Positions 18,101 to 38,551 of a stretch of 64,000 bases of DNA are shown here, piece by piece. Under the pieces are notes generated by a model. It was not told where the DNA came from, searched no databases, and saw only the letters and a list, made by a program, of their open reading frames with translations. This stretch comes from a virus (taxonomy: Duplodnaviria > Caudoviricetes), in IMG/VR virus record IMGVR_UViG_3300032285_001531. One strand, 5' to 3'. Within the stretch, counting starts at the first letter, position 1; each line of letters opens with the position of its first letter. The translations under genes were made by a program, and so were the position numbers.

Positions 18101-21100
18101 AATCCACCAACATTCGTGTCATCTGGAAATAACTATGGTGTTTACACAGGTGACGTAAACAGTGCCGGATTAGATTATGCACTCAGTGATACTATCATTA
18201 TATTGGGAACATCTTTAGGCGGTACTAGTCCAGCAAATGACTGTACTATTCTTGTAACTTCTGTAGGGGTAGACGGGTCAATATTAGGTATAGAGGTATC
18301 AGGTATACCACCAACAGTATATCAAGCTAGTTTACAGGGATCAACAGTTAAAATATTATCAGTAACAACTGAATCAGGAACAGGTGATACTCTGGTATCA
18401 TTAGACTATGCCAATAGCTCTTTATATCCAGCAGTTATTTCAGGAGCACAAGTATATTTTTATAAATCTACACATTTAACACCTTATGTTTATGATGATA
18501 CTATAAATGACGGGGCTGTGATTTGGATTTACAGTCCTAGATTATTTGGTTTATCAGTAAGTAATCAGTACTATATTGAAATCAAAGATGCAGGTATTAT
18601 TTACTCTACTGGAGATACTATTACTATTACCGGAGATTTATTGGGTGGAACTTCACCGGCTAATGATTTAATAATTACAATTACATATGCTGATCCTGGA
18701 ACAGGGGCAATAGTTTTTTATTCTTTAAATGGTGTTACTGTTGACTTGTATGAATTATATTTTGTCAAACCAATAAATTCTACTCAGGTTAAATTATACA
18801 CATCTTCTACATTATTATCACCGGTTATAGGATCAATTGATTTTACTACAAATGACGTTGTATTCTATCCTGAACCAATTGCAGGTAAACCTGGTTATAG
18901 TCAACCAATGATTTCGTTAGTTGCATACAATAATAAACTGTATCGTTGCATTGAAAGTAATACTGATACAGAGTTTGACTACGCTAAATGGGAATTATTA
19001 TACAGTGATGATCCTATGATTAATGCATTGGATAGAACATTAACATACTATCAGCCTACTGAAAGTATGCCAGGTAAAAACTTACCTTTATTAATGAGTG
19101 GGTTAGAATACCCAAATAGTACATATACTGGAAATAAGTTTGATCAGGCTATCACACTTGATGTTATACTAAATGACAAACCTTTCTATCCTAGCAATAT
19201 TGATGTTGCTGCAATTGTATGGGATGGAAATCAATTTGTAGCTGTTGGCAATACAACTAAGTATGTTATTCAAGAAGTTTTAAATGCTACCGCTTCTTTG
19301 AATGTAAACGTAGTATATGTAGAATTACCATACGCATATGACAGCATTAAAAAGGTTTCGGTATTTAATGCCACTAGAAATATAACGGTTAGCTCAGATA
19401 ACGTAGAATTAGTATTAACAGATACTTATCCTCAGTTAATATTTACTAATCAAGTATTAGAAGGTGACACATTAGTTATCACAACTTATTTTGGTGATAA
19501 TGAAGGTTACAGTATTGTTCTTCATAGCTCTAATGGAGTAGATTGGTCATTCAAAAAACTCAGTGATCAATTCTTAGATGTAAAAGATATTATATATTCA
19601 GGCTCGTTCTACGTGGTTGCAACAAACAATATCGATACTCCATTAATTATAAGTTATGATTCATATTCTTGGACTAGTGTTGGATCCTACACTGGTTATG
19701 ATATTTTTGAATATGACTCCGCAGGATTTGATACTGCTTCAGTTCAATCACCTAAGGATCAATTGAATAGTGTAGCATATTATAACAACCAGTATGTTTC
19801 TGTTGGTAAGAATATTCTATCAAGTATTAATGCCACTACATGGGATCAATCATTTAGTTTTGGATCAAGACTTACAAATACAATTAAATCTGTAAGCTAC
19901 ATAAACGGAACCTATCCAGCATTCAACGGATTTATTGCTGTTGGTTACGGTGATACTGTTACTGGAAATGAAAACACGCCTTACCCTAATATTGTACAAT
20001 ATACTAGAGTACTATTAAGCTATGATGGGATAAACTGGAACAATGTGTTCACTGGTCTACAATCTAAATGGTCGGTAGTATTTGGATCAGATACTACTAT
20101 CATAGCTGCTAGTGAAAATGGTGAAATATATTACAGTAACAATGGTTCTAACTGGGTACAAGCTACTATTAATGGAGCTCCGGTTACAGCTTCATTTAAT
20201 CATGGTATATTTGCAGCAAATAATTACATTCTTGTTGGTGATAAGGGCACAGTGGTATATAGTGCAGACGGTATAACTTGGACACAAGTTCCTTCAATAT
20301 CAAATAATAATTTACGTAAAATTTCATACAATGGCTTATATTCTAATGCTTCATATTTTATAGTAGTAGGTGATAAATCAACGATATTAAAGAGCGCCAA
20401 CTTACAAAATTGGGAAAATGAAACTTATATTAATACTGAGGATACTTTCTACGCTGTTAAAGGAGATCCTTTCTTATCAGGATATGGTCCGGAAGAATTA
20501 GTTCCTGGATTGATATATGATAATTTAAGTATGGTAGTAAGAAGCACACCTGGCTCATTATGGGATCCACTAGAATACAATAACTATGGTTTCTTTATGA
20601 AAGGAAAAACTGTAGTTTATGACGGTAATCAAGTAGTTGAGTTAGAGGACGGAACTACTCAATTCAGTTTTGCTGATTTAATGCTAAATCCTGCTCAAGT
20701 TGCAGTTTATACAATAGACGTTCAAAACTATGATCAGGCTACAAGAATATATGAAGTAAACTCTGTGGATAATCCTACTGCAGTAACAATCATAGAATCT
20801 ATCGACTGGGTTAATAAAACAGTAACTATTTCTTCTGGTTTTAACTACGGAGCATATAATATATATGTTGAAGTATATGGAGTAGGTGCAGGTAATCAAC
20901 AAGCCAAAGGTAGTTCAGATAGCGTACCTGTATATTATGATAGTAAGTTGGATGTAAGTTACATTGAAACTGATTACCCATATGATCCTAATGCATACTT
21001 AGTACCGTTAGTATATGTTAATGGAATTAAGAAAACATTTAATGTAGATTATGTGATAGTTCCTAGTTTCAATTCATCTATACAAATTCAATTTAATAGT

Positions 21101-22579
21101 GTAATTGATATTGAAACCGAATATGTAAACTTTACATTATGTGGTACTACACAAATTAATAACTTACCGCAACGTGATTATAGTATACCTGAATTACAAG
21201 TATTCCAATATATATCCGGTGCTCAAACATTTACACTTACAAATTATGTAGGAGATTCTAATCCAACCAATGCATTAGTTGAACTGAATGGAGTTAGATT
21301 AGTTCCTACTGTAGACTACACTATTATTAGTGTAACGTTGACTGTAATAACTTCATTATCTGCCGACGATGTAATTGCAGTGACAACTTTTGCAGACACC
21401 TCATCACAATATTTTGTTACTGATGAAGAAAACACAATTAACACATCTCCTATCGTTAACATCAATACATTGACAGTACCGGTAGTAGTAACTACCAATA
21501 AGAATACTGGATTTATTAGTGGTGATTCAATTATAATGGATGGTATTACTGGATCTACTCAGTTAAACGACATATTAAAATATGTTAAACCACTAGCAAC
21601 TTATGTTGAAGGTGCAACAACATATTACCCATATGAATTGTATGATGATCCAGATTTCTTATATCCTGTTATTCCTAACTTAACCGGCAAATATACCGGT
21701 GGGGGATATATTTGGAAGGCCTCAGATACTTTCCAAATCTCAAATACCAATTTTGATTTAACCGATGTAAACAGATTGTTTGTGACTGTAAGTGGACTTA
21801 GAATAACTCCTGATAAATTACGTATAAACACAAACAACAATTTACTTAATATCATTACTGATATAAGTGTAGGTGATACAGTATTGGTTACAAGCTTTAT
21901 GCCTACAGCGACACCAGATGAGGAAAGTTATTTGTTAAGTATTGATAGAAACGGTAATGCTTCAGTATACAATGCAAATATTAACAATAGAACATGGATA
22001 ACACAACCATTATATTTTAATGATACAGCAATTCATTTATTTGATGTATCTAAGTTAATTGATACCAAAACTATTAACATAGTAGCACAAAGTGACGGGA
22101 CTAAAATTTATGTTGATTTACCATATTTAATTGATGATATTAAGCAAATCTCTATAGAAAATAATAGTACCTTTACAACTATTTCTTACAGTACTCCGAC
22201 AAATCCATATGGAGCATATCTAGAGGTTCAGGATTCAGTAACTAAATTGATATTCCCTAGCATAGAAAATGTAAGTGCGGGTAATAATTTAACATTGACT
22301 TTACGTTTTGGGGATAAATTAACAATCAACGGGGAAAAGATTTTCTTCAGTATAGTTAATTATCAGGATAATACAGTATCAGGATTGATTCGAGGGGTAG
22401 ACGGTACACCGACCCGAGAATTCCACGAAACTAATAGTTTTGTTTACGGACTATCAGTAATAGATAGACTCCCTGACTATTACTATAACAAGACTTGGAA
22501 CAGTGAAATCTACAGTAATTTGGGTGATCCGCTACAAATAAGCAACACTTACCCAGCAAGATTCCTAAAAGCAAGGTAA
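6188..22579 (+). CDS. Giant (5463 aa) virion structural protein, probably a baseplate wedge protein with beta-propeller/adhesin modules
   Basis: Uninterrupted 16.4-kb ORF following gp6. Contains FG-GAP-like repeats (FGYSLSTNYDGTKLFVGAP, FGRSMS..GNELIIGAP), Asp-box-like repeats (SSNGVDW, SYDGINW, YSNNGSNW, YSADGITW) and a duplicated LGGTSPAND module. Confidence 0.65.
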   Translation: MVTKVRTLDFLPDIFKTVPNQAFLSATLDQLVQQPDTQKIQGYIGRKFEYGITPSSYYVTEPNKTRSNYQLEPAIIFTQKDTSKATDFITYPEIIDALRVEGSPVNNNSNLFANEFYSWDSFTDLDKLTNFSQYYWLPTGPDSVEVRPTAIPVSSVYTLTSYIHYYQFTKDNELIPEINPTITLARGGEYYFGVDQKTDFYIQTMPGINGIDPQRNNVSTREVFGVSNNGQSKGVVTFKVPYANAQSGDVYEGLVKVDLVTTLAFNDIDGRRLSEIGTIDGVNQLLDRTLMFYGDKNSKYVNVDSFYDFTSYDQSQPVEVGFDQTIPLQLNDFFYRIVYESLDIPNDPIIRLESAGTIPINTNIQVLIGKDYSNKKFVKNVYGEIALIPQITAPLDTLYYQDSVDPLRFGVIKLIDLETDNYLNIENEILGKIGYTSPNNVKFTNGLKVNFAGNVIPASFKGKDYYVDGVGSKIVLLPVNEFVVPEPFSTGIYTAYDAAPYDLTVYSDILETPTIPDYITISRNSRSRNPWTRSNRWFHKDVIQETINHTSSSVLLSIINNETNRAKRPIIEFYPNIKLYNSGTDSKQPIDFIDFVETNGLANVAGRELVVTTGINGGTNAIQVNDTSTMTAGQAISFTGDMFTSLGVVTVDANVIYYVKEILSGTDFTISETLGGPVFDVATSITPVTIIPYCVDGKAVFDGAKVVFAVDSNIDARDKIYIVKFVTLHGGTRYYITLTKAPDGDVQYNDQTVVLFGNTAKGKSFYYDGSNWIEAQSKTLVNQPPLFDVYDKNGTSFGDQTYYNSSDFTGITLFQYAVGTGNDDPVLGFPLKYSSVNNVGDISFEVSLNTQSFHYVLNGLPVTEAVNEGYPIIYSDRSTYENQLGWQTAASPSFQYQAFEFTYYPANNNTFFVCDVPVKPVNETAWPVIRVTMGETVLDSTMYTYTVTGSTTTVTFASTPLVEIPVQILIYSDKVSATAYYVIPTNLENNIFNNEVSTLNLGDIRNHFQTIFLNSEKLTGSAFGANNYRDVPNLLRYGTKIIQNSAPLTIAGALLRNKSFSLLESLSFNSNEYVKFKSLLIDTINKTDYTVYQSDASILDDALSQISSYKTDVNAFFWSDMLPSRSSYISNTYKFSTFVDTTNFQLSRIYDFSSANYYGVLIYLSRTVDGVPRTIQLVKDIDYQISSTEAQVTIFTDLIPNDLIIINEYNQTYGSFVPNTPSKLGFYPISVPEVVYDETYISPAYFIKGHDGSYTKLYGDYIDGYLVDFRDRALYEFELRVYNNIKVKAKIPVTADEVIPGQFRTTNFTYDEILGLYSTYFLNWIGKNRIDYKSQYYSMNNPYTYNYNQSANKLDNTQINQGNWRGMYNWFFDTTTPNLTPWEMIGHANKPSWWDARYGASPYTSDNMLLWQDMEAGIDYNNGSPFVNPARVRPGLSKVLPVDSMGNLVDPMNSVVGNYDNLTFNRDWRVGDWGPAEYSYIKSSTYPFDLIKLLALCKPAKFFALGEDLDHYKFNTEFNQYLYDNRFRFSTVNAVKYGSGVAQHSYLDWVVDYIQSSGNTGYDVLTNILTNLDVRLVYRMAGFSDKDLLKFYVDKGTPNSKNNSLLIPDESYSVILHENQPFDTVTYSSVIVQKTDTGYKVFGNSQNKIYFTTYTPLLNGKYDKLTVGGETVTVTKDYIKKELIIPYNTEFPTIQALSEFLSNYGKYLTDHGFVFDVIDRGILVDWNSMIKEVLYWTQSGWEVGAIINLNPAAKRIVINKESSIVQPLTLQDQNYILNQDLIPIQIKDMNVNRNGTEFSADILNENDTASYFIANLSNIEHAIVFDNTTLFNDLIYDPNTGLRQYRILVKGVKTAEWTGTMDTKGFILNQDNIQEWQANSRYSKGVIIKYKNVYWAADDIIQPASTFQQALWKRVDYEKIQKGLLPNASSRAYESTLYYDSNSANLESDADLLGFSIIGYRPRNYLAAANLDDISQVNLYKTMVVEKGSKNAVSAIQNITLQTGGIQYETYENWAINVGQYGGILNQNFIEFTLNQNQLSGNPAIIGITKDTEVPGATQIVPLNALTNYGRSITDANILPLLDPATTNKLPSAGYVNFNDVRMYSYTYLGLNNTTLPVDQLNKNEYIWVADYKNEWQVYTPEAITFAGSPSQVINITNNLNSTATVTFDNPHGLVKDDLFIIQNYSDLLDGFYIVNQVGSITTVVVDISLSATAQTSTQSVGLAAKMISARITESNDIINTDFLNSEFVTSKLWVDQAVNGGWAVYKKTLNYQRTNFVDKPEVTVSFGSAVAYDTKLGYFISDADDGKLYRYTYSVVSQDYSLVDTISVSTGYGSAIAHSNDMMAVTLPGSTSYVYIYSLEQTKNIEAVVQQQIITITGKIAGYKIAMSGDKKYLFVPATNNAQVLVYRLDNNYTYTSTGYATNANIAIGDQTFTIAGNHTAIYNEGDKVTFANTNGTTVYKFIKAYYDSANSQTVYSIEGNFSENISSGTTAYKATYRYTSVGTVSVGGLGSSDNFGYSLSTNYDGTKLFVGAPNQDYSFNYTDEGYAYIFNRVVQNFYQSYASLTDASTTYTLAYAATNTPVVLLNEEVVDPTNYTVYTSAIDTYGSLVAGSGYTNGQYSIALTNLTGSGTGAVAQITVSGGAVTNLWLRNRGSGYAIGNELTAALPAGSSFKITVTAIKNLLTLNVPVNAGDIVTFSSGDFIQSQTLVGHDIIANPKVGVLFGRSMSNNTSGNELIIGAPYDVTNTGIEGSVYRFTNEAQKYGMIKGTTTVTLASPTSILINGYAVTLPVGIDNIISTINNAILPNIQASKTTDNKLIISLIDATLSPSNNKLNITVFDSAVYGYLGFNLYTKTQVLHDINQQNATQFGYELKFNEYNSFVVSSLVGTRYSLTSFDFTDDGNYTNDTIFDNNFTMFVDTLPNAGCAYMYDYIPTYNENIDSVGQFVLAQTVNDVITDIGNTEYYGETIAFNNYVVMIGSPNFKPGTDDGRVNIFYNQANEQDWAIYRSAGSVVDVNKLQNIQIFNNRDSSMLSTLDYIDPLQGKLFGVVRENLDFISDNDPAGYNTSTVNNKVVWGSDYVGSMWLDTSAIRFVDYHQQDLVYNSRYWGTVFPGSTVAVYTWTENDVPPITFTSTGTPYELDSYTMLSTVTNTGAVLTKYYYWVRNTDTVYAGNSLSDNVIESYITNPLGSGIPFFAAYAQNEFGLYNSAEFIQSTDSSLHIGYKQGTNDDVPHNEFQLIRDGYADDFLHGLPSLYNPVIEPEGLYRKLLDSLSGTDVRGNELPDPFLPKLLQIGTQVRPRQSFFVDRLMALQNYCMYANSVMIQFPIVEMKNPSFSGLFKATSGQNAPAFFTTYGEFYDTANYWEYVNWWATGYSDATRTDVEVPKYYDLSTLVPFTNMVAGVISNSDGKREVYVYNGIEWERVGLQLGTIQIKESLWNYTINKIGFGDNFFDTDLYDYFPSVETENIVRGLTEEVFTGDMAIYRNRSLILLFEYIITESQNYGGYLTWLNKTSFLDVQHTLRELVQSKNFQRDNDDFLYGYINEVKPYRVVLKEFSLRYTKTEVYDGDISDFDLPASYNATLDRFISPQLVFTENYKTGEYLPSDTIWQDNLYNQWFNNYGVILSSIPNYNLGTLKYFISVTSREIVVDNAFGYPTVGILQIDDEIISYTGVDRDRGILYGVIRAENNTVAAVHYPGTKIYTDLPGAVVFYTGRGYTDAPVITAYIDTNIYPVPNQKAVLKAIMSGDIVVGVEIVNPGAGYAVTPDIIVEPSIVSTFGSIDVNYISNTILVLYDNFITGDLVKYTAGTSRILGLIDGDYYYVGLTEYVGVTKPAPTGETSGSLTPIALYTSKIDAINDSHRVVMIQAGESTDNKLSLGARIIPISSNKPTRQLTTKLKFDRTSYRPQVVEWEPNGFYGALYDTRGNDASYAALLSTSIDYYSVTGETSASGHDAVFNIFNWVYGGGNNPPTFVSSGNNYGVYTGDVNSAGLDYALSDTIIILGTSLGGTSPANDCTILVTSVGVDGSILGIEVSGIPPTVYQASLQGSTVKILSVTTESGTGDTLVSLDYANSSLYPAVISGAQVYFYKSTHLTPYVYDDTINDGAVIWIYSPRLFGLSVSNQYYIEIKDAGIIYSTGDTITITGDLLGGTSPANDLIITITYADPGTGAIVFYSLNGVTVDLYELYFVKPINSTQVKLYTSSTLLSPVIGSIDFTTNDVVFYPEPIAGKPGYSQPMISLVAYNNKLYRCIESNTDTEFDYAKWELLYSDDPMINALDRTLTYYQPTESMPGKNLPLLMSGLEYPNSTYTGNKFDQAITLDVILNDKPFYPSNIDVAAIVWDGNQFVAVGNTTKYVIQEVLNATASLNVNVVYVELPYAYDSIKKVSVFNATRNITVSSDNVELVLTDTYPQLIFTNQVLEGDTLVITTYFGDNEGYSIVLHSSNGVDWSFKKLSDQFLDVKDIIYSGSFYVVATNNIDTPLIISYDSYSWTSVGSYTGYDIFEYDSAGFDTASVQSPKDQLNSVAYYNNQYVSVGKNILSSINATTWDQSFSFGSRLTNTIKSVSYINGTYPAFNGFIAVGYGDTVTGNENTPYPNIVQYTRVLLSYDGINWNNVFTGLQSKWSVVFGSDTTIIAASENGEIYYSNNGSNWVQATINGAPVTASFNHGIFAANNYILVGDKGTVVYSADGITWTQVPSISNNNLRKISYNGLYSNASYFIVVGDKSTILKSANLQNWENETYINTEDTFYAVKGDPFLSGYGPEELVPGLIYDNLSMVVRSTPGSLWDPLEYNNYGFFMKGKTVVYDGNQVVELEDGTTQFSFADLMLNPAQVAVYTIDVQNYDQATRIYEVNSVDNPTAVTIIESIDWVNKTVTISSGFNYGAYNIYVEVYGVGAGNQQAKGSSDSVPVYYDSKLDVSYIETDYPYDPNAYLVPLVYVNGIKKTFNVDYVIVPSFNSSIQIQFNSVIDIETEYVNFTLCGTTQINNLPQRDYSIPELQVFQYISGAQTFTLTNYVGDSNPTNALVELNGVRLVPTVDYTIISVTLTVITSLSADDVIAVTTFADTSSQYFVTDEENTINTSPIVNINTLTVPVVVTTNKNTGFISGDSIIMDGITGSTQLNDILKYVKPLATYVEGATTYYPYELYDDPDFLYPVIPNLTGKYTGGGYIWKASDTFQISNTNFDLTDVNRLFVTVSGLRITPDKLRINTNNNLLNIITDISVGDTVLVTSFMPTATPDEESYLLSIDRNGNASVYNANINNRTWITQPLYFNDTAIHLFDVSKLIDTKTINIVAQSDGTKIYVDLPYLIDDIKQISIENNSTFTTISYSTPTNPYGAYLEVQDSVTKLIFPSIENVSAGNNLTLTLRFGDKLTINGEKIFFSIVNYQDNTVSGLIRGVDGTPTREFHETNSFVYGLSVIDRLPDYYYNKTWNSEIYSNLGDPLQISNTYPARFLKAR

Positions 22580-27747: not shown

Positions 27748-28684
27748 CGTAATTGAAATAGCAGACCTAGATTGCATTTATCTAAGTTATGATGAACCAC
27801 AAAAAGAAGAATTTTGGGTAAAGATTCAAAACATGGTGCCATGGGCACGTAGAGTAGATGGAGTTAAAGGTAGTGATGCAGCACACAAAGCAGCCGCAGA
27901 AGCCAGCGATACTGAACGATTCATATTGATTGACGGTGACAACATTCCTAATTTTGATTTCTTTAATCTTAAATTAGATTTCACAAATAAAGACCCTAGT
28001 TACAAACAAGCACAGTATCGTTGGAGAGCAGTAAATGCTATCAATGGACTACGATACGGTAACGGTGGTATTAGTTCATGGACTAAGACTTATGTAGAGA
28101 ACATGCGCACACATGAAAATAGCGATGGAGGTGCATCGACCACTGTTGATTTTTGTTTAGACAGTAGCGATAACTTGTATTGGAGTATGTATGATTGTTA
28201 TTCAACTACATATCCTAACTACACACCATTCCAAGCATGGCGTGCCGGGTTTCGTGAAGGTGTAAAGATGTGTCTAGTAAATGGTGTAAAGCCTAGTGTT
28301 GATGAATTCAAGCAAAAAGTTGCAACTAGAAATATGGATAATCTTACTATATGGCATAATGTAGGTATGGATGTTGAGAACGGTAATTGGGCTATTCTAG
28401 GCGCACGTATGGGAACGTATATGACTATGATGACAGATTGGGATAATAATCAAGTTCAATGGTTCGATAACTTTATCACAATGTGGGAAGAATGTAAAGA
28501 TAAGGATCCTATACGTGAATCAACATTATTTGGTGCAGCACTTATGGATAAATTAGGGTTACCTACAGCTACGTTGAGTAAAGAACAAAGTAAATTTTTC
28601 AAACGACACTATATGGCAGACAAACACAACTTGGGGCCATTAGTACGTGAGATGGACGTGATACGAAAGATAGAAGGTTGGTAA
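27740..28684 (+). CDS. Glycosyltransferase-like protein
   Basis: DCIYLSYDEP..WARRVDGVKGSDAAHKAAA..FILIDGDN has a GT-A-like core with DxD; homologous to the C-terminal domain of 31020-32567 (W[R/K]TAFRE/WRAGFRE motif). Confidence 0.5.
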   Translation: MSDVIEIADLDCIYLSYDEPQKEEFWVKIQNMVPWARRVDGVKGSDAAHKAAAEASDTERFILIDGDNIPNFDFFNLKLDFTNKDPSYKQAQYRWRAVNAINGLRYGNGGISSWTKTYVENMRTHENSDGGASTTVDFCLDSSDNLYWSMYDCYSTTYPNYTPFQAWRAGFREGVKMCLVNGVKPSVDEFKQKVATRNMDNLTIWHNVGMDVENGNWAILGARMGTYMTMMTDWDNNQVQWFDNFITMWEECKDKDPIRESTLFGAALMDKLGLPTATLSKEQSKFFKRHYMADKHNLGPLVREMDVIRKIEGW

Positions 28685-30024
28685 TGAAAATAAAAACTAT
28701 ATTCAAAAATTTATATAGAAAAGTAAGAGTAAAGCTAATAAGGATACAAAAAACAGTGATAGATAAACCTGACTTATCTAATAAATTATGTGCAGTGCCT
28801 TGGATGCACTTAAATTTTGAACCTAATGGCAAAGTAGTTCCTTGCTGTCTTACATCAACTTATAATTATTTTGCAGGAGATTTAACAAAGCAAAGCATTA
28901 ATGATATTTGGAATAGCGGGAATATGAAAGATTTGCGCATTCAAATGATGAACAATGTAGAGCCTGAAATCTGCAGAAAATGTTATGATAAAGAAAGAGT
29001 AACAGGAGAAAGTGGAAGAACATATCACAATCTTGAGTTCAAAAGTGTATTAAAACAGATACCAGTTATTACTAAGTCTGATGGTACTTGTACTAAGATG
29101 GAATTAAAATATTGGGATTTTAGATTTAGTAATTTATGTAATCTGAAGTGTCGCAGTTGTGGTCCGCGCTATAGTTCTGCGTGGGTGCCTGATGCTAAGA
29201 AATTAGGATATGCCGATCAGGAAAAAGTATGGAATATTGAATCAGTAGGTACTACTCCTAATTATGATTTTCTTAAAGAGCAAGTAGAGTATGTTGAGAA
29301 AATATATTTTGCAGGTGGTGAACCTTTATTGATGCCTGAGCATTGGCAGATACTAGACTTATTGGTACAAAATAGAAGATTCGATGTAAAATTATCATAC
29401 AATACAAACTGCACGACTTTAACATACGGTAAAAAGAATATCGTAGATTATTGGGGGCAATGGGAGTTTGGTAAGATAGAAGTATGGCCAAGTTTAGATG
29501 AAATAGATAATCGTGCTGAACTTGTGCGTAGCGGTACTGATTGGAAAAAAGTAGAAGAAAATCTAAAAGAACTCAATGAACTAGACAATATAATTGTGCG
29601 ACCTGGAATAACAGTAGGAGTGTTCAATGTGTTTAGATTGCCGCAAATAATTAATAGACTAGTAGAACTAAATGTTATAAATGAACGACATTGGTATAAA
29701 AACTTTTTTATTAATTTGTTAGAAGATCCAAAGCACTATCATGTTCATGTGCTGCCGGATGAATTTAGACAAAAAACGATAACAGATTTAAACAATTTTG
29801 TCAATGATTATAATAAAAAGTATAGTACTGATATTAGTCCTCACTTCAAACAGATATTGTTTGAATTGACTAGACCTTACAACAGCAAAGCAGCTAAAGA
29901 TTTTTTACGAGTTACTGGAGAAGTTGATAGGATACGCAATGAAGATACATTTGCTACCATTCCAGAATTACATGTTATTAGAATGAAATATCCAAACATA
30001 TATGAAACTGCAAAGAATATATAG
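28684..30024 (+). CDS. Radical SAM protein with an N-terminal SPASM/twitch-like Cys cluster
   Basis: CxxxCxxC motif CNLKCRSC, GGEP, N-terminal CAVPW..PCC..C..C; start placed at the TAATG overlap at 28684. Confidence 0.85.
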   Translation: MKIKTIFKNLYRKVRVKLIRIQKTVIDKPDLSNKLCAVPWMHLNFEPNGKVVPCCLTSTYNYFAGDLTKQSINDIWNSGNMKDLRIQMMNNVEPEICRKCYDKERVTGESGRTYHNLEFKSVLKQIPVITKSDGTCTKMELKYWDFRFSNLCNLKCRSCGPRYSSAWVPDAKKLGYADQEKVWNIESVGTTPNYDFLKEQVEYVEKIYFAGGEPLLMPEHWQILDLLVQNRRFDVKLSYNTNCTTLTYGKKNIVDYWGQWEFGKIEVWPSLDEIDNRAELVRSGTDWKKVEENLKELNELDNIIVRPGITVGVFNVFRLPQIINRLVELNVINERHWYKNFFINLLEDPKHYHVHVLPDEFRQKTITDLNNFVNDYNKKYSTDISPHFKQILFELTRPYNSKAAKDFLRVTGEVDRIRNEDTFATIPELHVIRMKYPNIYETAKNI

Positions 30025-31030
30025 AAACGAAAATCACAATCAGTCATTTTTTGTAGTAGACTGGATGCTACATGATCGTTGCACATATGATTGTAGCTAT
30101 TGTCCTCCCGGTAATAAACAGGGCATTGACACATGGCTAAATCTTTCTACGTTAAAAGAGTTTTGCGATGAATTAGAAAAACACGCAGCAAACGTTGATC
30201 CAAACACTAAGATACTTGCTAATTTCTCTGGCGGGGAACCAACAGTTTGGAAACACTTCCCTGAATTATTAGATGCATTAACACAACGAGGATGGTTAAT
30301 TTCAATCAGTACTAATGGTAGTAGAAGTATAAACTGGTGGAAAGAGAATGCACACAAGCTTACAAGAATAAACTTAAGCTATCATACTGAATCTGTTGTT
30401 GATGATGAATTTTTAGAAAAAGTAAGGGTGTGTGAAGAATACTCACAAACAAGTGTTAATATTATGCTTAATCCTGATCCTAAATTATTTGGTAAAGCTG
30501 TTAATTTTAACAAAAGAGTGTTGGCTGAAACATCTAAAGCAGGAGTGCATAATCATCAAATACAGCACAATTTTGGTATGCAAACTATTATGGTTCCGTA
30601 TTACACTAAAGCACAAAAAGAAATAATGTCAACATTACCAGATAGATATCCTGCTGTACATCCTGATCAAGTTCATATACGTCATAACTATTTTCACAGC
30701 ACAATATATGGTGTTAAGAAAAGTACTGATGGCAGCACACTTATTGATAAACAACTAGTTAATTTTGAAAACTGGATTTGCTCCGCTGGTATTGAAGGAG
30801 TTTTTGTTGATTCTGCAGGCAGAGTAAGTAGAGGTACTTGTAGAATGGGAGGAGAACTAGGTAATATACAAGAACCAAATAAAATAAATTGGCCTACTAC
30901 TCCTGTATTGTGTAAAAAGGATTGGTGCGGTTGTATAACAGATATATTAAAAAGTAAACACGATACTAAGAAATTTACACTAACTGAAAGAATAAAAGAT
31001 TTTATTATGGATGTAAAGAATGGACGCTGA
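30002..31030 (+). CDS. Radical SAM protein with a C-terminal twitch-like domain
   Basis: CTYDCSYC, FSGGEPT, STNGS; C-terminal C..G..C...C..WC.C. Confidence 0.85.
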   Translation: MKLQRIYRNENHNQSFFVVDWMLHDRCTYDCSYCPPGNKQGIDTWLNLSTLKEFCDELEKHAANVDPNTKILANFSGGEPTVWKHFPELLDALTQRGWLISISTNGSRSINWWKENAHKLTRINLSYHTESVVDDEFLEKVRVCEEYSQTSVNIMLNPDPKLFGKAVNFNKRVLAETSKAGVHNHQIQHNFGMQTIMVPYYTKAQKEIMSTLPDRYPAVHPDQVHIRHNYFHSTIYGVKKSTDGSTLIDKQLVNFENWICSAGIEGVFVDSAGRVSRGTCRMGGELGNIQEPNKINWPTTPVLCKKDWCGCITDILKSKHDTKKFTLTERIKDFIMDVKNGR

Positions 31031-32567
31031 ATTAAAAAGAAGAATGGAACTTTGGAAACAAGGTACATGGGAAATTCCTGAAGATTTAGATACTAGTAAT
31101 TTCGATTTTACTTGGAGACCATTTCATTTTGATAGACCATATATACATCAATTTGGTACACAGCATCAAAAGACAGGTGGCCCTAGATTTATTGTTCCTG
31201 ATAATGAAGGAGTAAAGTATCAGGATTATCAAATAGCAATTAAGTTACCTAACAAAAATAATCGGTGTTGGAGACCATTAGTACCTAATGCTGAGATTGA
31301 TTTTAGTTGGCATCCTGATGATAACGATCCTCCCTTTATACATGTGTTCGGCAATCAATGGTATGATGGTGTAGATATGCCCACGTATCAATATCGTGTA
31401 GCCGGAGCTACTGAAAAGAAGTATGAACATAATCTAAAAGCAAAGTTATTACCTAATCCTTCAAATAGAGGGTTTAGACCATTAAAAATTATAAGTGACT
31501 TTGATTATAGTTGGGTACCGCACCCCAAAGATCCTCCCTTTATATACGTGTTTGGTAATCAATGGTATGATGCTACTGAGATGCCAACACTTGAGTATAG
31601 AGTTAAAGATGCTGTAACTAGAAAGTTTGTAACACATCCTAAAGCTACTCTTAAAATTGAAAAAGTAAAGCTAGAAGATTGTTTACACCATATGGTAATA
31701 GATACAAAATTCAATACAAAGTATATTCACTTTGGTAGTGCAACAGTTGATTATTCAGAAGTAATACCAGAGGATGATTTGTATATACACATCATTGATA
31801 ATGTAGAAGCTATTGTACCTAAAGAAGCTAAATCATTCATATATTCAACACTGTTAGATTATCCTCATATAAAATATCATACATGCGGAATCAAAGCAGT
31901 GCCATTAGACATTATATTTTTAAGTAATGGTGAAGAAGGAGCTGAAGAAAACTATCAGCACTTATTAAGATTGACAAAAAACTTACCTAATAATGTTATT
32001 AAAATAGAGGGTGTTAAGGGTCGTGTTGCTAGTCAACATGAAGCTGCAAAACAAAGTTCAACTGCTTGGTATTTTTTAATTAATGCTAAATTGCGTGTTG
32101 ATGACAATTTTGATTTTAGTTGGCAACCTGATTATTTAGATACAAGTAAGCACTATATTTTTAGAGCAAAAAATATTGTTAATGGATTAGAATATGGTCA
32201 TATGGCTATAGTAGCGAACAATAAAAAAATCACATTAGAGACATTAGGAACAGGTCTTGACTTTACATTAGATGGAAAGTTTGAGATTGTTGATATTAAT
32301 TCAGGAGTAGGGGTATTCAATACCAGTGAGTGGGATACTTGGCGTACTGCATTTAGAGAAGCGATTAAACTTAGACATTCAAATGATCCGGATTCTATAA
32401 AAAGATTACAAACATGGCTTACTGTAGCAGAAGGTGAGTTTGCCCAAATATCTATGCAGGGTGCCGCTGATGCTGTAAAGTATTATGAATCAGTAGAAGG
32501 TGACTTTCAGAAGTTAAAACTTAGTTACGATTGGGATTGGCTAAAAGAGAGATTCCAACATAAATAA
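31020..32567 (+). CDS. Repeat-containing glycosyltransferase-like protein
   Basis: Repeated FD[F/Y]SW.P...DPP.I.VFGNQW modules; the C-terminal domain (DIIFLSNGE..GVKGRVASQHEAA..WRTAFRE) is homologous to 27740-28684. Confidence 0.5.
   Translation: MDAELKRRMELWKQGTWEIPEDLDTSNFDFTWRPFHFDRPYIHQFGTQHQKTGGPRFIVPDNEGVKYQDYQIAIKLPNKNNRCWRPLVPNAEIDFSWHPDDNDPPFIHVFGNQWYDGVDMPTYQYRVAGATEKKYEHNLKAKLLPNPSNRGFRPLKIISDFDYSWVPHPKDPPFIYVFGNQWYDATEMPTLEYRVKDAVTRKFVTHPKATLKIEKVKLEDCLHHMVIDTKFNTKYIHFGSATVDYSEVIPEDDLYIHIIDNVEAIVPKEAKSFIYSTLLDYPHIKYHTCGIKAVPLDIIFLSNGEEGAEENYQHLLRLTKNLPNNVIKIEGVKGRVASQHEAAKQSSTAWYFLINAKLRVDDNFDFSWQPDYLDTSKHYIFRAKNIVNGLEYGHMAIVANNKKITLETLGTGLDFTLDGKFEIVDINSGVGVFNTSEWDTWRTAFREAIKLRHSNDPDSIKRLQTWLTVAEGEFAQISMQGAADAVKYYESVEGDFQKLKLSYDWDWLKERFQHK
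32561..32566 (+). promoter_or_regulatory. Late promoter (TAAATA), probably leaderless; could also drive the tmRNA
   Basis: TAAATA-agtgt-ATG with no SD. Confidence 0.5.
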
Positions 32568-32571
32568 GTGT

Positions 32572-32742
32572 ATGACACTTATTTGGGTATTACTAGTATT
32601 TGTAACTAATGACGGAGAATGGCGTGAATGGAACTCCTTTACCCGTGAGAGTGAGTGTTTGGAAGTAGCAAGAGTAATCACACATCACCGTGAAGATAGT
32701 ATTCAAGCTATGTGTGTAGCAAAACCAGTTATTAGTTCTTAA
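32572..32742 (+). CDS. 56-aa small protein absent from the ORF track (MTLIWVLLVFVTNDGEWREWNSFTRESECLEVARVITHHREDSIQAMCVAKPVISS)
   Basis: Translated by hand; hydrophobic N-terminus and two Cys; fills the gap between the late promoter and the tmRNA. Confidence 0.6.
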   Translation: MTLIWVLLVFVTNDGEWREWNSFTRESECLEVARVITHHREDSIQAMCVAKPVISS

Positions 32743-33000
32743 AGAATTGTTGTAATTCCTTCAAAGTGAAGGCATTCTGGACGCGGGTTCGACTCCCGCC
32801 TGGTCCACCATAAGAGCATACTGTGTTTTTATGATGGGCTAGACATGGTTTCGACAGGGTGAGATAATAGAGAAGGCAACACAGTAGGCGATGACTGTAA
32901 ATCAAGCAAAATTAGTATCTGCAAACGATGATACATATCTATTAGCCGCAAACGGCTAATTAGCGGGGCAACTATGCCTTGTTACCAAAAATAGTAATAG
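32743..33000 (+). ncRNA. ssrA: Circularly permuted (two-piece) tmRNA
   Basis: The 3' tRNA-like half (GCGGG-TTCGACT-CCCGC T-arm, CTGGTCC-A-CCA ending at 32810) precedes the 5' half GGGCTAG at 32836. The acceptor stem carries the G3-U70 Ala identity pair; CAGGGTG/CATTCTG form helix 2; tag ORF 32921-32959 is preceded by the conserved UA at -5/-4. Outer ends are approximate. Confidence 0.9.
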
Positions 33001-33017
33001 GAGCTTCGGCTCCTATT
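32996..33017 (+). terminator. Rho-independent terminator after the tmRNA
   Basis: AATAGGAGC-TTCG-GCTCCTATT followed by TATTT. Confidence 0.75.
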
Positions 33018-33024
33018 TATTTGG

Positions 33025-33050
33025 ATAAAAGGCTCTTCGGAGCCTTTTAT
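33025..33050. terminator. Bidirectional terminator
   Basis: ATAAAAGGCTC-TTCG-GAGCCTTTTAT at the junction of convergent transcription units. Confidence 0.8.
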
Positions 33051-33971: not shown

Positions 33972-34613
33972 TTATTTTTTCATTAGTTCATTTACAAATT
34001 CTAGTAATAAGTCATGCTGACCACCATGCCACTTATTCTTCATCCATGAATACATAGTATACCAGTTTTCTTCTGCTTCAGGATGACAGCCCATGATTCC
34101 AATTCTGCCTTGAAATATAGCCATTGGGTCACCGTTTGCGTAAGTAGCGTAGGTTTCAAATTTAGTTCTGTCGCCTTCTAATGCGCATCCATCGTAGAAG
34201 AACATGGTCATATCTTTGCCGTTCCAATTGATAGAGATGTCTTTTGCATGTGGTCTGCGTGTATCTGTGTTGGGTTGAGTAATATATTGTACTGCATCTA
34301 CACTGTCTAGTATATCAAAATAATGTGATCCTGCCCAATATGCACCCATACAAATACCCAAATATCTACCGCCTCTTGCCACAAAGTCACGTATTCTAGG
34401 AGCATGATGTTTCATCAAATAATGCCAACTTTCACTGTCTCCGTCACCCCCAGGGAAGGCTACGATATCTACATCATCAAAGAAATCATCTTCAATTTGG
34501 TGCCAAGTGAACAATTTTAGATTAAAATGAGTAGAAAAAGCCTTAATCATTCCGTTGGCACACTGCACCGAACAACGGGGTTGATGTATGAATAAAGCTA
34601 TTGTAGGTTTCAT
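33972..34613 (-). CDS. Class I glutamine-amidotransferase-like (BPL_N-type) protein
   Basis: DIVAFPGG, GGRYLGICMGAY (nucleophile-elbow Cys) and GCHPEA (His-x-Glu). Confidence 0.75.
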   Translation of the reverse strand: MKPTIALFIHQPRCSVQCANGMIKAFSTHFNLKLFTWHQIEDDFFDDVDIVAFPGGDGDSESWHYLMKHHAPRIRDFVARGGRYLGICMGAYWAGSHYFDILDSVDAVQYITQPNTDTRRPHAKDISINWNGKDMTMFFYDGCALEGDRTKFETYATYANGDPMAIFQGRIGIMGCHPEAEENWYTMYSWMKNKWHGGQHDLLLEFVNELMKK

Positions 34614-34688: not shown

Positions 34689-35399
34689 TTAATTCCAGTA
34701 CGTACTATTGTCTAGTTTGTTCCAGTATTCTATATTGTTACGATTTATAAAGTTTTTGATGAGGTACGCAGCCATTCCAAAATAGCCCATTTTCTTAAAT
34801 CTGCGTGAATCCTGTCCAAAGTAATGTTTGATGATTTTGAATTTTTTCGGACTATACATTCTGGATAGGAAATAATCTTCAGAGGTCGAGAACTTTTCAG
34901 GGAACCCACCAAATTCTTCAAACTTGTCTCTACGAGTGAGCATGAACGCACCCACAGCAAATGGGCTAAAATATTTTAGAACACTATTAACTAAATTAAA
35001 GATACTAAAGCCAATAGCTGTTCTCCAATCATCATCGTAACACATGATATTCAATCCAACTAAATCTAAGTTATTACTTTCAATTTCATTAACTGCATCT
35101 TGTATAACATATTTGCTGAAAAAACGGACATCAGCATCAATAAACAAAATATATGGAGTAGTAACTAATCTTGCTCCGTTGTTCTTAGCGACACTAACAG
35201 GACCACCATCTATGATTTCTATATTTAAAAAAGCACTATTGTCTTTTATAACTTGTCTGGTATTGTCTGTAGAACAATCAGCAATAATAATTCTAGTACC
35301 ACCTAGCTCCTGTAAGCGCAGGGAATCAATTAAATGATAAATGTAATTTTCTTCATTTTTGCAAGGAACTACAATTGTAATTTTTTCACTTAGTTTCAT
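34689..35399 (-). CDS. Family 2 glycosyltransferase
   Basis: ITIVVPCKNEE, IIIADCSTDNT, ILFIDAD (DxD) and SED motifs. Start moved to MKLSEK at 35399, which is ATGA-coupled to the hidden ORF. Confidence 0.85.
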   Translation of the reverse strand: MKLSEKITIVVPCKNEENYIYHLIDSLRLQELGGTRIIIADCSTDNTRQVIKDNSAFLNIEIIDGGPVSVAKNNGARLVTTPYILFIDADVRFFSKYVIQDAVNEIESNNLDLVGLNIMCYDDDWRTAIGFSIFNLVNSVLKYFSPFAVGAFMLTRRDKFEEFGGFPEKFSTSEDYFLSRMYSPKKFKIIKHYFGQDSRRFKKMGYFGMAAYLIKNFINRNNIEYWNKLDNSTYWN

Positions 35400-35569
35400 A
35401 TTTTTTTTACGCATTTACCTTCAATCTTAAATGATTCAAATTTTACCCAATAAGCCATGCTTCTTAGACTTTGTTCGCAACTTTGTTGATCTGGAAAATC
35501 CATTGTCATTTTCGCTGGAATGTCCTTTGGATCGTTTATGTGTACCGCTATCAATATCATCAACCACAT
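35396..35569 (-). CDS. Hidden 57-aa protein (MWLMILIAVHINDPKDIPAKMTMDFPDQQSCEQSLRSMAYWVKFESFKIEGKCVKKI)
   Basis: GGAG RBS 7 nt before the ATG; its TGA overlaps the GT2 start (ATGA); overlaps the last 134 nt of the phosphoesterase gene in another frame. Confidence 0.65.
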   Translation of the reverse strand: MWLMILIAVHINDPKDIPAKMTMDFPDQQSCEQSLRSMAYWVKFESFKIEGKCVKKI

Positions 35570-36320
35570 TATCTGTCTCCTGTGTCCAAGTTACAATCTC
35601 CCACTTACCATTGTGATGTTCTACAAGTGCAGTCATTGATTCAACCCAATCACCGTCGTTCATATAAACGACACCATCTACTTCTTTTATCTCTGCATGA
35701 TGTATATGACCACATATAACACCATCAAATCCTCGCTTCTTACAATACTGTGCTAAGTTCTTTTCAAACTGGAACATAAAGTCTATGGCTCGTTTGACTT
35801 TTCCTTTAAGATACTTAGAAAGGCTCCAATAACCAAAACCCATCCTATGACGGATCCAATTAAATCGAGTGTTGAGAGCAAGGACGAAATCATAGGCTTT
35901 ATCTCCTAATATTGAAAGCCAAGGTGCTAGTCTTGTGATTCCATCAAACAAGTCACCATGCACTACTAAGTAATGCTTACCATCTACACCTATATGTTCT
36001 ATTTGATTGGTAATCTCTAGCATACCAAATCCTAAACCATAATGCATAAAAGGTCTTAAGAACTCGTCATGGTTACCTGCTACGTATACAACTCGTGTAC
36101 CACGTTTGCTATGACCAAGTATTCTACGTATCACATTACTATGACTTTGTTTCCAGCGCCACTTGTTTTGTTTAATCTTCCAAGCATCAATGATGTCACC
36201 AACAAGGTATAATGTTTCGCAACTGTTATTCTTTAAGAAATTGTTTAGTGCTTCTGCTTTACAGTCTTTAGTACCTAAATGTACATCACTGATAAAAATA
36301 CTGCGATAAGTCTTATTCAT
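35436..36320 (-). CDS. plcP: PlcP-like metallophosphoesterase (phospholipase C of the LpxH/calcineurin-like superfamily)
   Basis: FISDVHLG, LVGDIID, GNHDEFLR, HGDLFD, LGDKAYD, GYWSLS, GVICGHIH and NDGDWVES match the PlcP/UDP-2,3-diacylglucosamine-hydrolase-like family. The upstream Pho box and downstream GT favour PlcP over LpxH. Confidence 0.75.
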   Translation of the reverse strand: MNKTYRSIFISDVHLGTKDCKAEALNNFLKNNSCETLYLVGDIIDAWKIKQNKWRWKQSHSNVIRRILGHSKRGTRVVYVAGNHDEFLRPFMHYGLGFGMLEITNQIEHIGVDGKHYLVVHGDLFDGITRLAPWLSILGDKAYDFVLALNTRFNWIRHRMGFGYWSLSKYLKGKVKRAIDFMFQFEKNLAQYCKKRGFDGVICGHIHHAEIKEVDGVVYMNDGDWVESMTALVEHHNGKWEIVTWTQETDNVVDDIDSGTHKRSKGHSSENDNGFSRSTKLRTKSKKHGLLGKI

Positions 36321-36338
36321 GTTATTATCCTATATAAT

Positions 36339-36373
36339 TATTTAATAGGAATTGTGTGACAATAATATGACAA
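36339..36373 (-). promoter_or_regulatory. Pho box promoter for plcP-orf57-GT2
   Basis: Minus strand TTGTCAT-ATTA-TTGTCAC (36373-36356, 11-bp period), a 10-nt spacer, then TTAAATA. Confidence 0.8.
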
Positions 36374-36380
36374 ACCGTAA

Positions 36381-36404
36381 AAAAAGGCACCTAAGTGCCT
36401 TTTT
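36381..36404. terminator. Rho-independent terminator after the porin gene
   Basis: AAAAAGGCAC-CTAA-GTGCCTTTTT. Confidence 0.8.
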
Positions 36405-36422
36405 ATTTTGCTCTAAATTAGA

Positions 36423-37547
36423 TTAGAAGCGATGCTGAATGCCAACTGCAAATGCACGTTGACTTAAAGCACTGTCACCAAAGTTTGAGCCACCACCATC
36501 TGGTACCCAACGATCATAAACAGTAAATGGTGCTGCTGCGTTTGCATTGCGGTTAGCAACTACATAGTCAGCGAACACTTCTGTACGCTTGCTGAATGCA
36601 TAAACTGCACCAACTGCATACATCTTAACATCATCTTTACCTGCTGTTACTTGGTCTTGTACATTGTAGTAACCACCGTTAACACTTACACGATCGGTAA
36701 CTTTGTACTTCGCACCAGCAAACCAAGTACGTGCATCAGTCTTACCGTCAGCTTTCGATGAGCTTGCACGGAATGCTGTTAGTGTATTTGGATTGTTAGT
36801 GATAACATAACCAGCGTTAACTAGTAAAGCATCAGTAACATTATACTTTGCTGCAACTAAGTCGATCTTTTCATCAACGTTAGCATTGGTTAAACGAACT
36901 TCTTCGTGTGTATATGCTACTTCTACTGGACCTGCTGTATACTTACCACCAATGTTGTAGCTGCTCTTTGAAGTAGTATCATTTAACTGATTACCAAAAC
37001 TATAAGAACCATCAACAACTAAGCCACCAAAGCTTGGTGATGTATAGCGAACCATGTTATCAAAACGTGATACGCCTGAACCACTATAGAAACCAGCATA
37101 ACGTGCGATTGGCTTTAAGCCACCGAAGTTCCAGTTGCCACGTGAATCAAATTCATCAAGTACGTTGTACAAGAAGTTCTTGCCACGACCTAATTGAATC
37201 TGACCAAATGAACCAGCTAGGGCTACATTTGCTTCACGATCAAATACTGTGGTTGAACCTGCACCGCCACTGCCTGAATCTTTACCAATTCCGCCAGTAC
37301 GTAGACTCAAGTTACTTTCTAAGTTAAACTTAGCTGTCATACCGTCGCCTAGGTCTTCTACACCTTTGAAGCCTAACCGATTGCTGCTGTGTAACTGTTC
37401 ACCGAAACCAGTGAAGTCACTGTTAGCTGAAGTGAAACCACTACCGCTAACTACACCTGCACCCAACAAACCATAAACGGTAACGTTCTGTGCCTGTGCA
37501 ACACCAGCCATAAGCATAAGTGCTGCTACTAATTTTGTTACTTTCAT
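36423..37547 (-). CDS. Gram-negative trimeric porin (betaproteobacterial Omp32-like)
   Basis: Signal peptide ending AQA; NVTVYG, RLGFKGVEDLGDGMTAKFNLE, FDREANVAL.G.FG.I.LGR, N.V.Y.SP.FGG, Y.FSKRT; C-terminal GIQHRF; ATGA-coupled to pstS. Confidence 0.9.
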   Translation of the reverse strand: MKVTKLVAALMLMAGVAQAQNVTVYGLLGAGVVSGSGFTSANSDFTGFGEQLHSSNRLGFKGVEDLGDGMTAKFNLESNLSLRTGGIGKDSGSGGAGSTTVFDREANVALAGSFGQIQLGRGKNFLYNVLDEFDSRGNWNFGGLKPIARYAGFYSGSGVSRFDNMVRYTSPSFGGLVVDGSYSFGNQLNDTTSKSSYNIGGKYTAGPVEVAYTHEEVRLTNANVDEKIDLVAAKYNVTDALLVNAGYVITNNPNTLTAFRASSSKADGKTDARTWFAGAKYKVTDRVSVNGGYYNVQDQVTAGKDDVKMYAVGAVYAFSKRTEVFADYVVANRNANAAAPFTVYDRWVPDGGGSNFGDSALSQRAFAVGIQHRF

Positions 37548-38551
37548 TTTACTTCTCCTAAGTTAAATTTAGACCATACATTCTTAACTATGGCAACTAC
37601 CTCTTTTGGTAGAGGAACATAGTCAAGTTCTACAGCCATCTTTTCTCCATTGTTAAAAGACCAATTGAAAAATTTTAAAACAGCTAATCCGACCGCAGGA
37701 TCGGCTTGCTGCTTATGCATGATTATATACGATGCACCTGTAATGGGCCAAGCATTCTGGTTAGATTGGTCTGTTAATATAACAGCCATACCAGGTGAAT
37801 TAGCCCAATCAGCACCTATTGCTGCTGCTTTGAATGTATCGTCATCAGGTTGAATCCATTTGCCTGCTTTGTTCTTTACTTGAACATGTGCAATTTTATT
37901 CTTTTTGGCATATGCGTATTCTACATAGCCAATTGCACCTTGCAGTCTTTGTGCGTTTGCAGCAACACCTTCGTTACCTTTGCCGCCTACGCCTGTTGGC
38001 CATTTAACTGCTGTACCTGAACCAACCTTTTCTTTCCATTCAGGAACTGTTTTGCTTAACCAGTCAGTGAACAAAAATGTTGTGCCTGAACCATCAGCAC
38101 GATGTAGTACAGTGATATCCATATCAGGAAACTTAACTGTTGGGTTTAGTTCTTTGATACGAGGATCAGTCCACTTAGTGATTTTGCCTAAGTATATAGC
38201 AGCAATTACATCTGCTGTTAATTTTATTTGCCCAGGCTGAATGCCAACTAGATTTACAACTGGAACTACTCCACCGATAATAGCTGGGAATTGAACTAAA
38301 CCTTCTTTGTCTAGTTCTTCTTGTTTCAACGGCATATCACTTGCACCAAAATCTACTGTTTTAGCTTTGATTTGTTTAATACCACCACCTGAACCAATTG
38401 ATTGATAATTAAGACCTATCCCTGTTTGGGCTTTATATGCTTCTGCCCATTTAGAATAGATTGGATAGGGGAATGTTGCTCCTGCTCCTGTGATGTCTGC
38501 TGCAAATGACGTACTTGACAGAATTACAAGTACTGCGAATAATTTTTTCAC
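37544..38551 (-). CDS. pstS: Phosphate ABC transporter substrate-binding protein PstS
   Basis: Signal peptide; ITGAGATFPYP.Y.KW, YQSIGSGGG, DFGASD, RADGSGTT, GGKGNEGV, WPITG; GTG start with AAGGAG RBS. Confidence 0.95.
   Translation of the reverse strand: MKKLFAVLVILSSTSFAADITGAGATFPYPIYSKWAEAYKAQTGIGLNYQSIGSGGGIKQIKAKTVDFGASDMPLKQEELDKEGLVQFPAIIGGVVPVVNLVGIQPGQIKLTADVIAAIYLGKITKWTDPRIKELNPTVKFPDMDITVLHRADGSGTTFLFTDWLSKTVPEWKEKVGSGTAVKWPTGVGGKGNEGVAANAQRLQGAIGYVEYAYAKKNKIAHVQVKNKAGKWIQPDDDTFKAAAIGADWANSPGMAVILTDQSNQNAWPITGASYIIMHKQQADPAVGLAVLKFFNWSFNNGEKMAVELDYVPLPKEVVAIVKNVWSKFNLGEVK

Follow-up and report, generated by a model that had tools for sequence, protein, structure and literature searches.

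The window, by which we mean the whole stretch of 64,000 nucleotides analysed here (Duplodnaviria; Caudoviricetes; IMG/VR record IMGVR_UViG_3300032285_001531), carries a two-piece tmRNA gene whose tag reading frame runs two codons past the usual …LAA and stops on the 3' arm of helix 5. Sequence comparison indicates that this extension is conserved and restricted to phage DNA. The reading towards which we lean, with moderate confidence, is that of a working two-piece phage tmRNA with an extended tag, a weakened direct ClpXP degron, and degradation of the tagged products that would be slower or adaptor-only.

Two Rfam models recognise the gene: beta_tmRNA (RF01850, model positions 1-331, 181.3 bits against a cut-off of 84, E = 1e-56) and tmRNA_permuted (RF04321, 134 bits against a cut-off of 47). 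No other Rfam family reaches its gathering score in the 64-kb window, and no riboswitch is detected there. ARAGORN predicts a permuted tmRNA at 32718-33050 with the tag ANDDTYLLAANG followed by a stop, in independent agreement on the tag. The order of the parts is circularly permuted: the CCA end (32810) is encoded upstream of the GGGCUAG start (32836). The third pair of the acceptor stem is G3.U70, the alanine identity pair. The features of the gene are as follows.

32703..33019, plus strand: two-piece (circularly permuted) tmRNA gene of beta-proteobacterial type, from RF01850 and ARAGORN.
32783-32799, plus strand: T-arm, from the Rfam structure line and sequence reading.
32800-32806, plus strand: 3' acceptor strand CUGGUCC, from the Rfam structure line and sequence reading.
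32807-32810, plus strand: encoded ACCA, from the Rfam structure line and sequence reading.
32811..32835, plus strand: 25-nt intervening segment separating the CCA end from the 5' GGG, from sequence reading.
32836..32842, plus strand: 5' acceptor strand GGGCUAG, forming 7 bp with 32800-32806, from sequence reading.
32875..32911, plus strand: core of pseudoknot 1 (PK1), 37 nt, identical in 71 IMG/VR contigs.
32916..32917, plus strand: U-A at -5/-4 of the resume codon, the T-A being kept in alignments.
32921..32956, plus strand: tag ORF ANDDTYLLAANG, twelve sense codons beginning with the resume codon GCA (32921-23), from sequence reading and ARAGORN.
32941..32960, plus strand: helix 5, a perfect 8-bp stem with a CAAA loop, from the minimum-free-energy fold.
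32941-48, 32949-52 and 32953-60, plus strand: the parts of helix 5, respectively ATTAGCCG, CAAA and CGGCTAAT.
32951-53 and 32954-56, plus strand: extension codons AAC (Asn) and GGC (Gly), from sequence reading.
32957..32959, plus strand: stop codon UAA within the 3' arm of helix 5, base-paired to the Leu codon UUA (32942-44), from sequence reading and the fold.
32970..32995, plus strand: conserved helix after the tag, CUAU…GCCUUGUUACCAAAA…AUAG, from the Rfam structure line.
32996..33017, plus strand: terminal 9-bp hairpin, the last helix of the Rfam model, terminator-like.

The tmRNA is intact in its tRNA-like domain, resume context, ORF and terminator. The intervening segment, whose length differs among relatives, would be cut out as the two pieces mature. 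The module with the helix at 32970-32995 is common to 24 IMG/VR contigs, and the terminal hairpin is possibly a bidirectional terminator-like element. Since a promoter scan at the tmRNA stays at chance level, we claim no promoter.

The initial annotation placed the resume codon at GCA 32921, with U32916-A32917 at -5/-4, a choice borne out by sequence reading, by ARAGORN and by homology with more than 100 tmRNAs. Indeed, the resume codon is fixed because the context GCAAACGA, which aligns with that many related tmRNAs having tags that read AND..., is homologous across all of them. The tag end -LLAANG that it reported, with the stop at 32957-32959, is recovered by both sequence reading and ARAGORN. 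The perfect hairpin with a CAAA loop and the stop on its 3' arm, also described there, is seen by sequence reading and is present in the minimum-free-energy fold. We likewise agree that the two extra residues are due to the shift of the stop onto the 3' arm of helix 5. The terminal portion of the window tag is AANDDTYLLAANG, and its counterpart in related phages ends in …NA. With the charged alanine in front, the tag reads A-ANDDTYLLAA-N-G/A, which matches the pattern A-A-N-D-x-x-Y.

The Rfam consensus, sister phage tmRNAs and Burkholderiales genomes all have a UAA directly after …LAA in the loop of helix 5. The consensus tag ends in …GCC GCc UAA, with the stop within the hairpin loop, and the window is aligned to it with a 4-nt gap at this place. 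The nearest sequence in the tag-end region, L025, reads …TTA GCC GCT TAA and has an 8-nt loop. A comparative survey of tmRNAs found that one to three stop codons sit in the helix-5 loop (Burks 2005, PMC1168896); the window, with its stop on the 3' arm and its loop reduced to CAAA, lacks this typical arrangement. The position of the stop is a departure in anatomy and no ground for exclusion from the RF01850 family. When the loop stop is lost, translation continues to the next in-frame UAA, two codons further, and the comparison identifies the extended tag as the derived state.

A census of tags over all loci gives the same perspective on a larger scale: 44 of the 48 distinct tags end in [LIMVF][AV][AV], so that the phage family usually keeps a canonical degron and, with most sister phages ending in …LAA, phages cannot be said to discard the degron as a rule. 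Syntenic sister phages, among them L033, L036, L038, L039, L041, L051 and L054, have tags of 26-31 residues, far in excess of the length of cellular beta-type tags; these long tags end in ALAA, FAV or LAV, an example being a 31-residue tag that ends in …ESRFALAA. Judged by these sequences, a single phage family harbours hypervariable tags. A further non-canonical tag, ANADTLIHLTSVQ followed by a stop, is found in L063 (9942-10311, minus strand), where the tmRNA copy may be frameshifted or decaying. In L038 (4617-4690) and L097 (3196-3269), a tRNA with anticodon CUA (amber suppressor), labelled tRNA-Pyl by ARAGORN, lies about 250 nt downstream of the tmRNA.

The relatives were collected by seeding IMG/VR with two conserved tmRNA cores, which gave 9 and 71 viral contigs, and with the 3' helix module, which gave 24 more. 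The first gapped tag pattern returned almost only chance matches and one real tmRNA, that of L025. The extended tag is found in 12 contigs of IMG/VR, where it reads ANDDTYLLAANA, or ANDDTFLLAANA or ANDDTFLLASNA, the last two each followed by two stops. A degenerate search of JGI metagenomes for the window tag gave 8 contigs, all with ANDDTYLLAANA followed by a stop. The clade that shares the extension thus numbers about 20 contigs, with seven nucleotide versions and four peptides; at least 19 of the contigs are distinct, L105 and L157 being apparently one 178,197-bp record. Its presence in so many related contigs makes the extension an inherited lineage trait, and not a one-off error. The four viral records that were searched whole contain one tmRNA each.

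The closest relatives of the window tmRNA are L218 and L219, which have the same 5' acceptor end. The -NG ending to which the initial annotation drew attention is true of the window, but it is not the norm of the clade: Gly is found in the window only, where the tag ends in -A-N-G, and all relatives end in Ala, as -A-N-A or -S-N-A. The exact window tag end is absent from IMG/VR.

Among the 185,579 bacterial species representatives of GTDB, none has the extension tags ANDDTYLLAANA, ANDDTFLLAANA or ANDDTFLLASNA. A pattern for the tag end has 38 matches there, about the number expected by chance, and none of them is in a tmRNA context. The 37-nt PK1 core, carried by 71 IMG/VR contigs, has no match among the same bacterial species; a looser PK1 pattern retrieves the tmRNAs of Advenella and Pelistega (Alcaligenaceae), all with the tag ANDESYALAA. 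The tags of bacterial relatives are ANDESYALAA or ANDERFALAA. A comparison of tags in related phages had been proposed at the outset as a check, and it proves informative: it yields the extension in about 20 contigs, a clade that appears to be phage-only, and signs of constraint on the peptide, to which we return below.

The DNA of the window is that of a phage, with a G+C content of about 35%. It encodes a T4-type baseplate wedge protein (phrog_10646, E = 1e-250), a baseplate hub and a large terminase, together with thymidylate synthase and a PstS-like phosphate-binding protein. An ORF of 5,463 residues at 6188-22579 (plus strand), directly 3' of the baseplate wedge gene, is very large for a phage protein. 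The tmRNA is flanked by radical-SAM/SPASM genes, a repeat protein, a GATase-like protein and a phosphate-stress module, located as follows.

28678-32567, plus strand: SPASM/radical-SAM protein, second radical-SAM protein and internally repeated protein of 515 residues, directly upstream of the tmRNA.
33972-34613, minus strand: class-I glutamine-amidotransferase-like / BPL_N domain protein of 213 residues.
34689-38551, minus strand: phosphate-stress module with a GT2 glycosyltransferase, a PlcP-like metallophosphoesterase, a Gram-negative porin (Porin_4) and PstS.

Many contigs of viral relatives are syntenic with the window. The three upstream genes are kept in L141, L152 and L154, and the internal repeats of the 515-residue protein give multiple tblastn segments. 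The GATase-like protein is found near the tmRNA of several relatives with 50-66% identity, and the PlcP-like phosphoesterase beside the tmRNA (35436-36320) has about 80% amino-acid identity in viral relatives. One related viral contig of 178 kb has a completeness rating of 51%. The cultured phages of INPHARED show no relative of the 24-kb neighbourhood around the tmRNA, and only short T-arm matches to the tmRNA itself, with no similar tmRNA. No SmpB gene was seen among the window ORFs scanned, nor beside the tmRNA.

The host may tentatively be placed among Burkholderiales with a canonical tag. The phage porin has one relative in GTDB, 48% identical, in a Burkholderiales MAG, and the tmRNA of this MAG has the tag ANDERFALAA with its UAA in the loop. 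A second RF01850 match in the MAG was rejected, as it corresponds to ordinary tRNA genes.

We can now set out how such a tmRNA would act. It would belong to a large family, of beta-proteobacterial type, carried by freshwater T4-like jumbo phages; one sub-lineage would have lost the loop stop after …LAA when its helix-5 loop shrank to CAAA. As we infer from the family, the tmRNA is expressed and used by the SmpB and AlaRS of the host: the RNA would be cut into two pieces, charged with Ala, and delivered by host SmpB/EF-Tu. Translation would resume at GCA, appending A-ANDDTYLLAANG, and the ribosome would read two more codons (Asn, then Ala or Gly) before it terminates at the UAA of the 3' arm. 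No effect is expected on the rescue of stalled ribosomes, from alanylation and SmpB entry to resumption at GCA and termination. The tag would keep its AANDxxY part, but its Leu-Ala-Ala, which ClpX must find at a free C-terminus, would now be buried: ribosomes would be recycled, and tagged products would be degraded more slowly or only with an adaptor.

All that we say on the proteolysis of tagged proteins we infer in the same manner, and it comes down to the two ends of the tag. At one end, a pattern match finds the SspB-type part A-A-N-D-x-x-Y. In E. coli, SspB binds the AANDxxY part of the tag. At the other end, the tag lacks the ClpX degron, a C-terminal Ala-Ala with a free alpha-carboxylate, usually preceded by Leu, Val or Ile. 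That ClpX needs a free C-terminal Ala-Ala, as the initial annotation stated, agrees with published work: the terminal Ala-Ala-COO- is the main determinant for ClpX (Fei et al. 2020, PMC7652416), and the KM of ClpXP rises when either of the last two residues or the carboxylate is changed (PMC7652416). With Asn-Gly or Asn-Ala where ClpX expects Ala-Ala, direct recognition should thus be weakened, and escape from ClpXP is plausible on the peptide sequence. Work on phage lambda-immP22, summarised in PMC2862035, shows that trans-translation can matter to a phage chiefly through ribosome recycling, which makes rescue without proteolysis biologically reasonable.

However, engineered tags that end in …ADAS, which are not degraded alone, are degraded when tethered by SspB (PMC8512704). 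Since the AANDxxY part is kept in the window, sparing from ClpXP is one of two live readings. The other, which we find possible although doubtful, is that the tag, though extended, continues to direct efficient degradation, and that the extension tunes or re-routes proteolysis: the protein would be tethered to ClpX by SspB, or …LLAANA would be read by ClpAP, Lon, FtsH, Tsp, or a host ClpX of different specificity. The A-A-N-D-x-x-Y part is exactly as in the AANDENY of E. coli, and its retention points to continued engagement of the ClpXP/SspB system by the tag. In most members of the clade the last residue is Ala, which leaves a small hydrophobic residue at the free C-terminus, and -ANA might be accepted by host ClpX or by another protease. 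That full degrons persist in sister phages suggests some benefit of degradation to the phage family. Against efficient degradation stand the penultimate residue, a polar Asn throughout the clade, and the terminal Gly of the window, both at positions where a change is costly to ClpXP.

A bolder scenario, which we consider rather unlikely, turns the tag into a masked degron that would bind SspB and escape ClpX. Ribosomes would be recycled, for example after cleavage of mRNA by a defence nuclease, and the truncated products of the phage would be spared; at high dosage, the tmRNA would also out-compete that of the host, and would clog or titrate the SspB/ClpXP route. A link of the tag to defence toxins is pure speculation, and no toxin or protease gene was seen among the genes that neighbour the tmRNA.

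The extension could also be a by-product of selection on RNA structure, or neutral, the extra residues having no function of their own. A tighter and longer helix 5 with a 4-nt loop might be favoured for its stability, for nuclease resistance, or for the folding of a reduced two-piece tmRNA. Helix 5 is paired in 90% of the cells across the clade, against 9-42% when the partner is slid (six sequences), and it shows one compensatory pair, C-G to A-U, and one change from A-U to G.U: these six sequences give modest covariation backing for the helix, and the compensatory change speaks for selection on structure. So does the Gly codon of the window, GGC where the clade has GCC, which replaces a C.C mismatch by a C-G pair and thereby completes the stem. 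The AAC codon is invariant and lies in the loop and the closing pair, where RNA constraint alone could explain its conservation. However, most members keep the C.C mismatch, which indicates that maximal stability is not selected, and the change of GCC to GCA in L218 and L219 is synonymous: it breaks a stem pair and keeps the peptide. Moreover, the variable sites are biased to synonymous positions. The seven versions of the tag ORF vary at 5 of 8.7 synonymous and at 3 of 27.3 non-synonymous sites (ratio 0.19, Fisher p = 0.013). These are signs that the tag is under peptide-level constraint, read from the whole tag ORF and not from codons 11 and 12, the extension itself, which have zero synonymous variation among the seven versions. 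On these grounds we regard a mere by-product of RNA structure as improbable.

In the group of tags that end in …YLLAANA, the tag module is 96-100% identical, and the preceding 100 nt, which include two different PK1 architectures, are only 59-90% identical. A module so well kept behind diverged 5' parts is either strongly conserved or exchanged between phages, and is not decaying. The tmRNAs of L103-L110 and L169-L174, in which one tag module stands behind two pseudoknot-1 architectures and diverged acceptor and T-arm pieces, look mosaic from their sequences; in L103 and L109, ORF-like DNA occupies the expected site of the 3' acceptor piece.

Lastly, the Gly found in the window only could raise the suspicion of an artefact, through another resume codon or frame, or through an assembly error at G 32955 coupled with a decaying gene, but this is extremely improbable: more than 100 tmRNAs share a homologous resume context, the covariance score exceeds the cut-off by a factor of more than two, the extension recurs in about 20 independent contigs, and the window differs from its relatives elsewhere in the helix, which indicates a diverged lineage and not a single miscall.

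The question addressed by these data is whether phages carry tmRNA genes for ribosome recycling, for the tagging and degradation of proteins, or for both. The present family is a natural experiment in this respect, with syntenic sisters whose tags are canonical (…ALAA), very long, or extended (…LLAA-NA/NG). If the extension blocks ClpXP, then at least some phages select rescue without proteolysis, and synthetic biology gains a natural, evolution-tested 'cryptic' ssrA tag. If it does not, the proteases that act on tmRNA tags have a wider specificity than is known at present.

Genes for tmRNA have been found in 402 of 18,146 phage genomes (PMC9004378), and huge phages carry them too (PMC7162821). 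We found no published description of a tmRNA in which the degron is followed by extra residues through a shift of the stop to the 3' arm of helix 5. The nearest known system is the beta-proteobacterial two-piece tmRNA (RF01850; Sharkady & Williams 2004, as cited in PMC9004378), with which the window shares the permuted order, the acceptor stem with G3.U70 and the T-arm; it also shares with RF01850 members pseudoknot 1, the resume context, the AND… start of the tag, helix 5 and the 3' helices. The bacterial members read in this analysis differ: their tags finish with …ALAA and their UAA stands in the helix-5 loop, whereas the window has …LLAANG and a UAA on the 3' arm. Among phages, the OM43 phage Melnitz and the pelagimyophages (Buchholz et al. 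2022, PMC9004378) likewise carry a complete two-piece ssrA in a large T4-like aquatic phage; this ssrA has been proposed to maintain the hijacked translation machinery, or to serve in tagging (PMC9004378). However, the ssrA of Melnitz is of alpha-proteobacterial type and lies behind a glutamine riboswitch; the window has the beta type, without a detected riboswitch, and a tag extended past the degron.

Engineered ssrA variants (…LDD; …ADAS/DAS+4) also keep the SspB-binding AANDxxY and alter the ClpX-binding C-terminus. In these variants the last residues are substituted in the laboratory, whereas in the window tag two residues are added after an intact LLAA by a moved stop. Among cellular tmRNAs, Carsonella, with a tag that ends in Lys, and H. 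pylori, with a Lys near the end, likewise depart from the hydrophobic …LAA rule (PMC4131195, PMC2862035); in a catalogue of 710 unique tags, Carsonella is named as the sole species with a charged tag end (PMC4131195). Those tmRNAs belong to reduced or specialised bacteria, whereas the clade with the extension is phage-only, and canonical tags are kept in its sister phages and in the candidate host order. Two-piece tmRNAs of phages being already known, the conserved phage-only clade with the extended tag is a variant of a known system.
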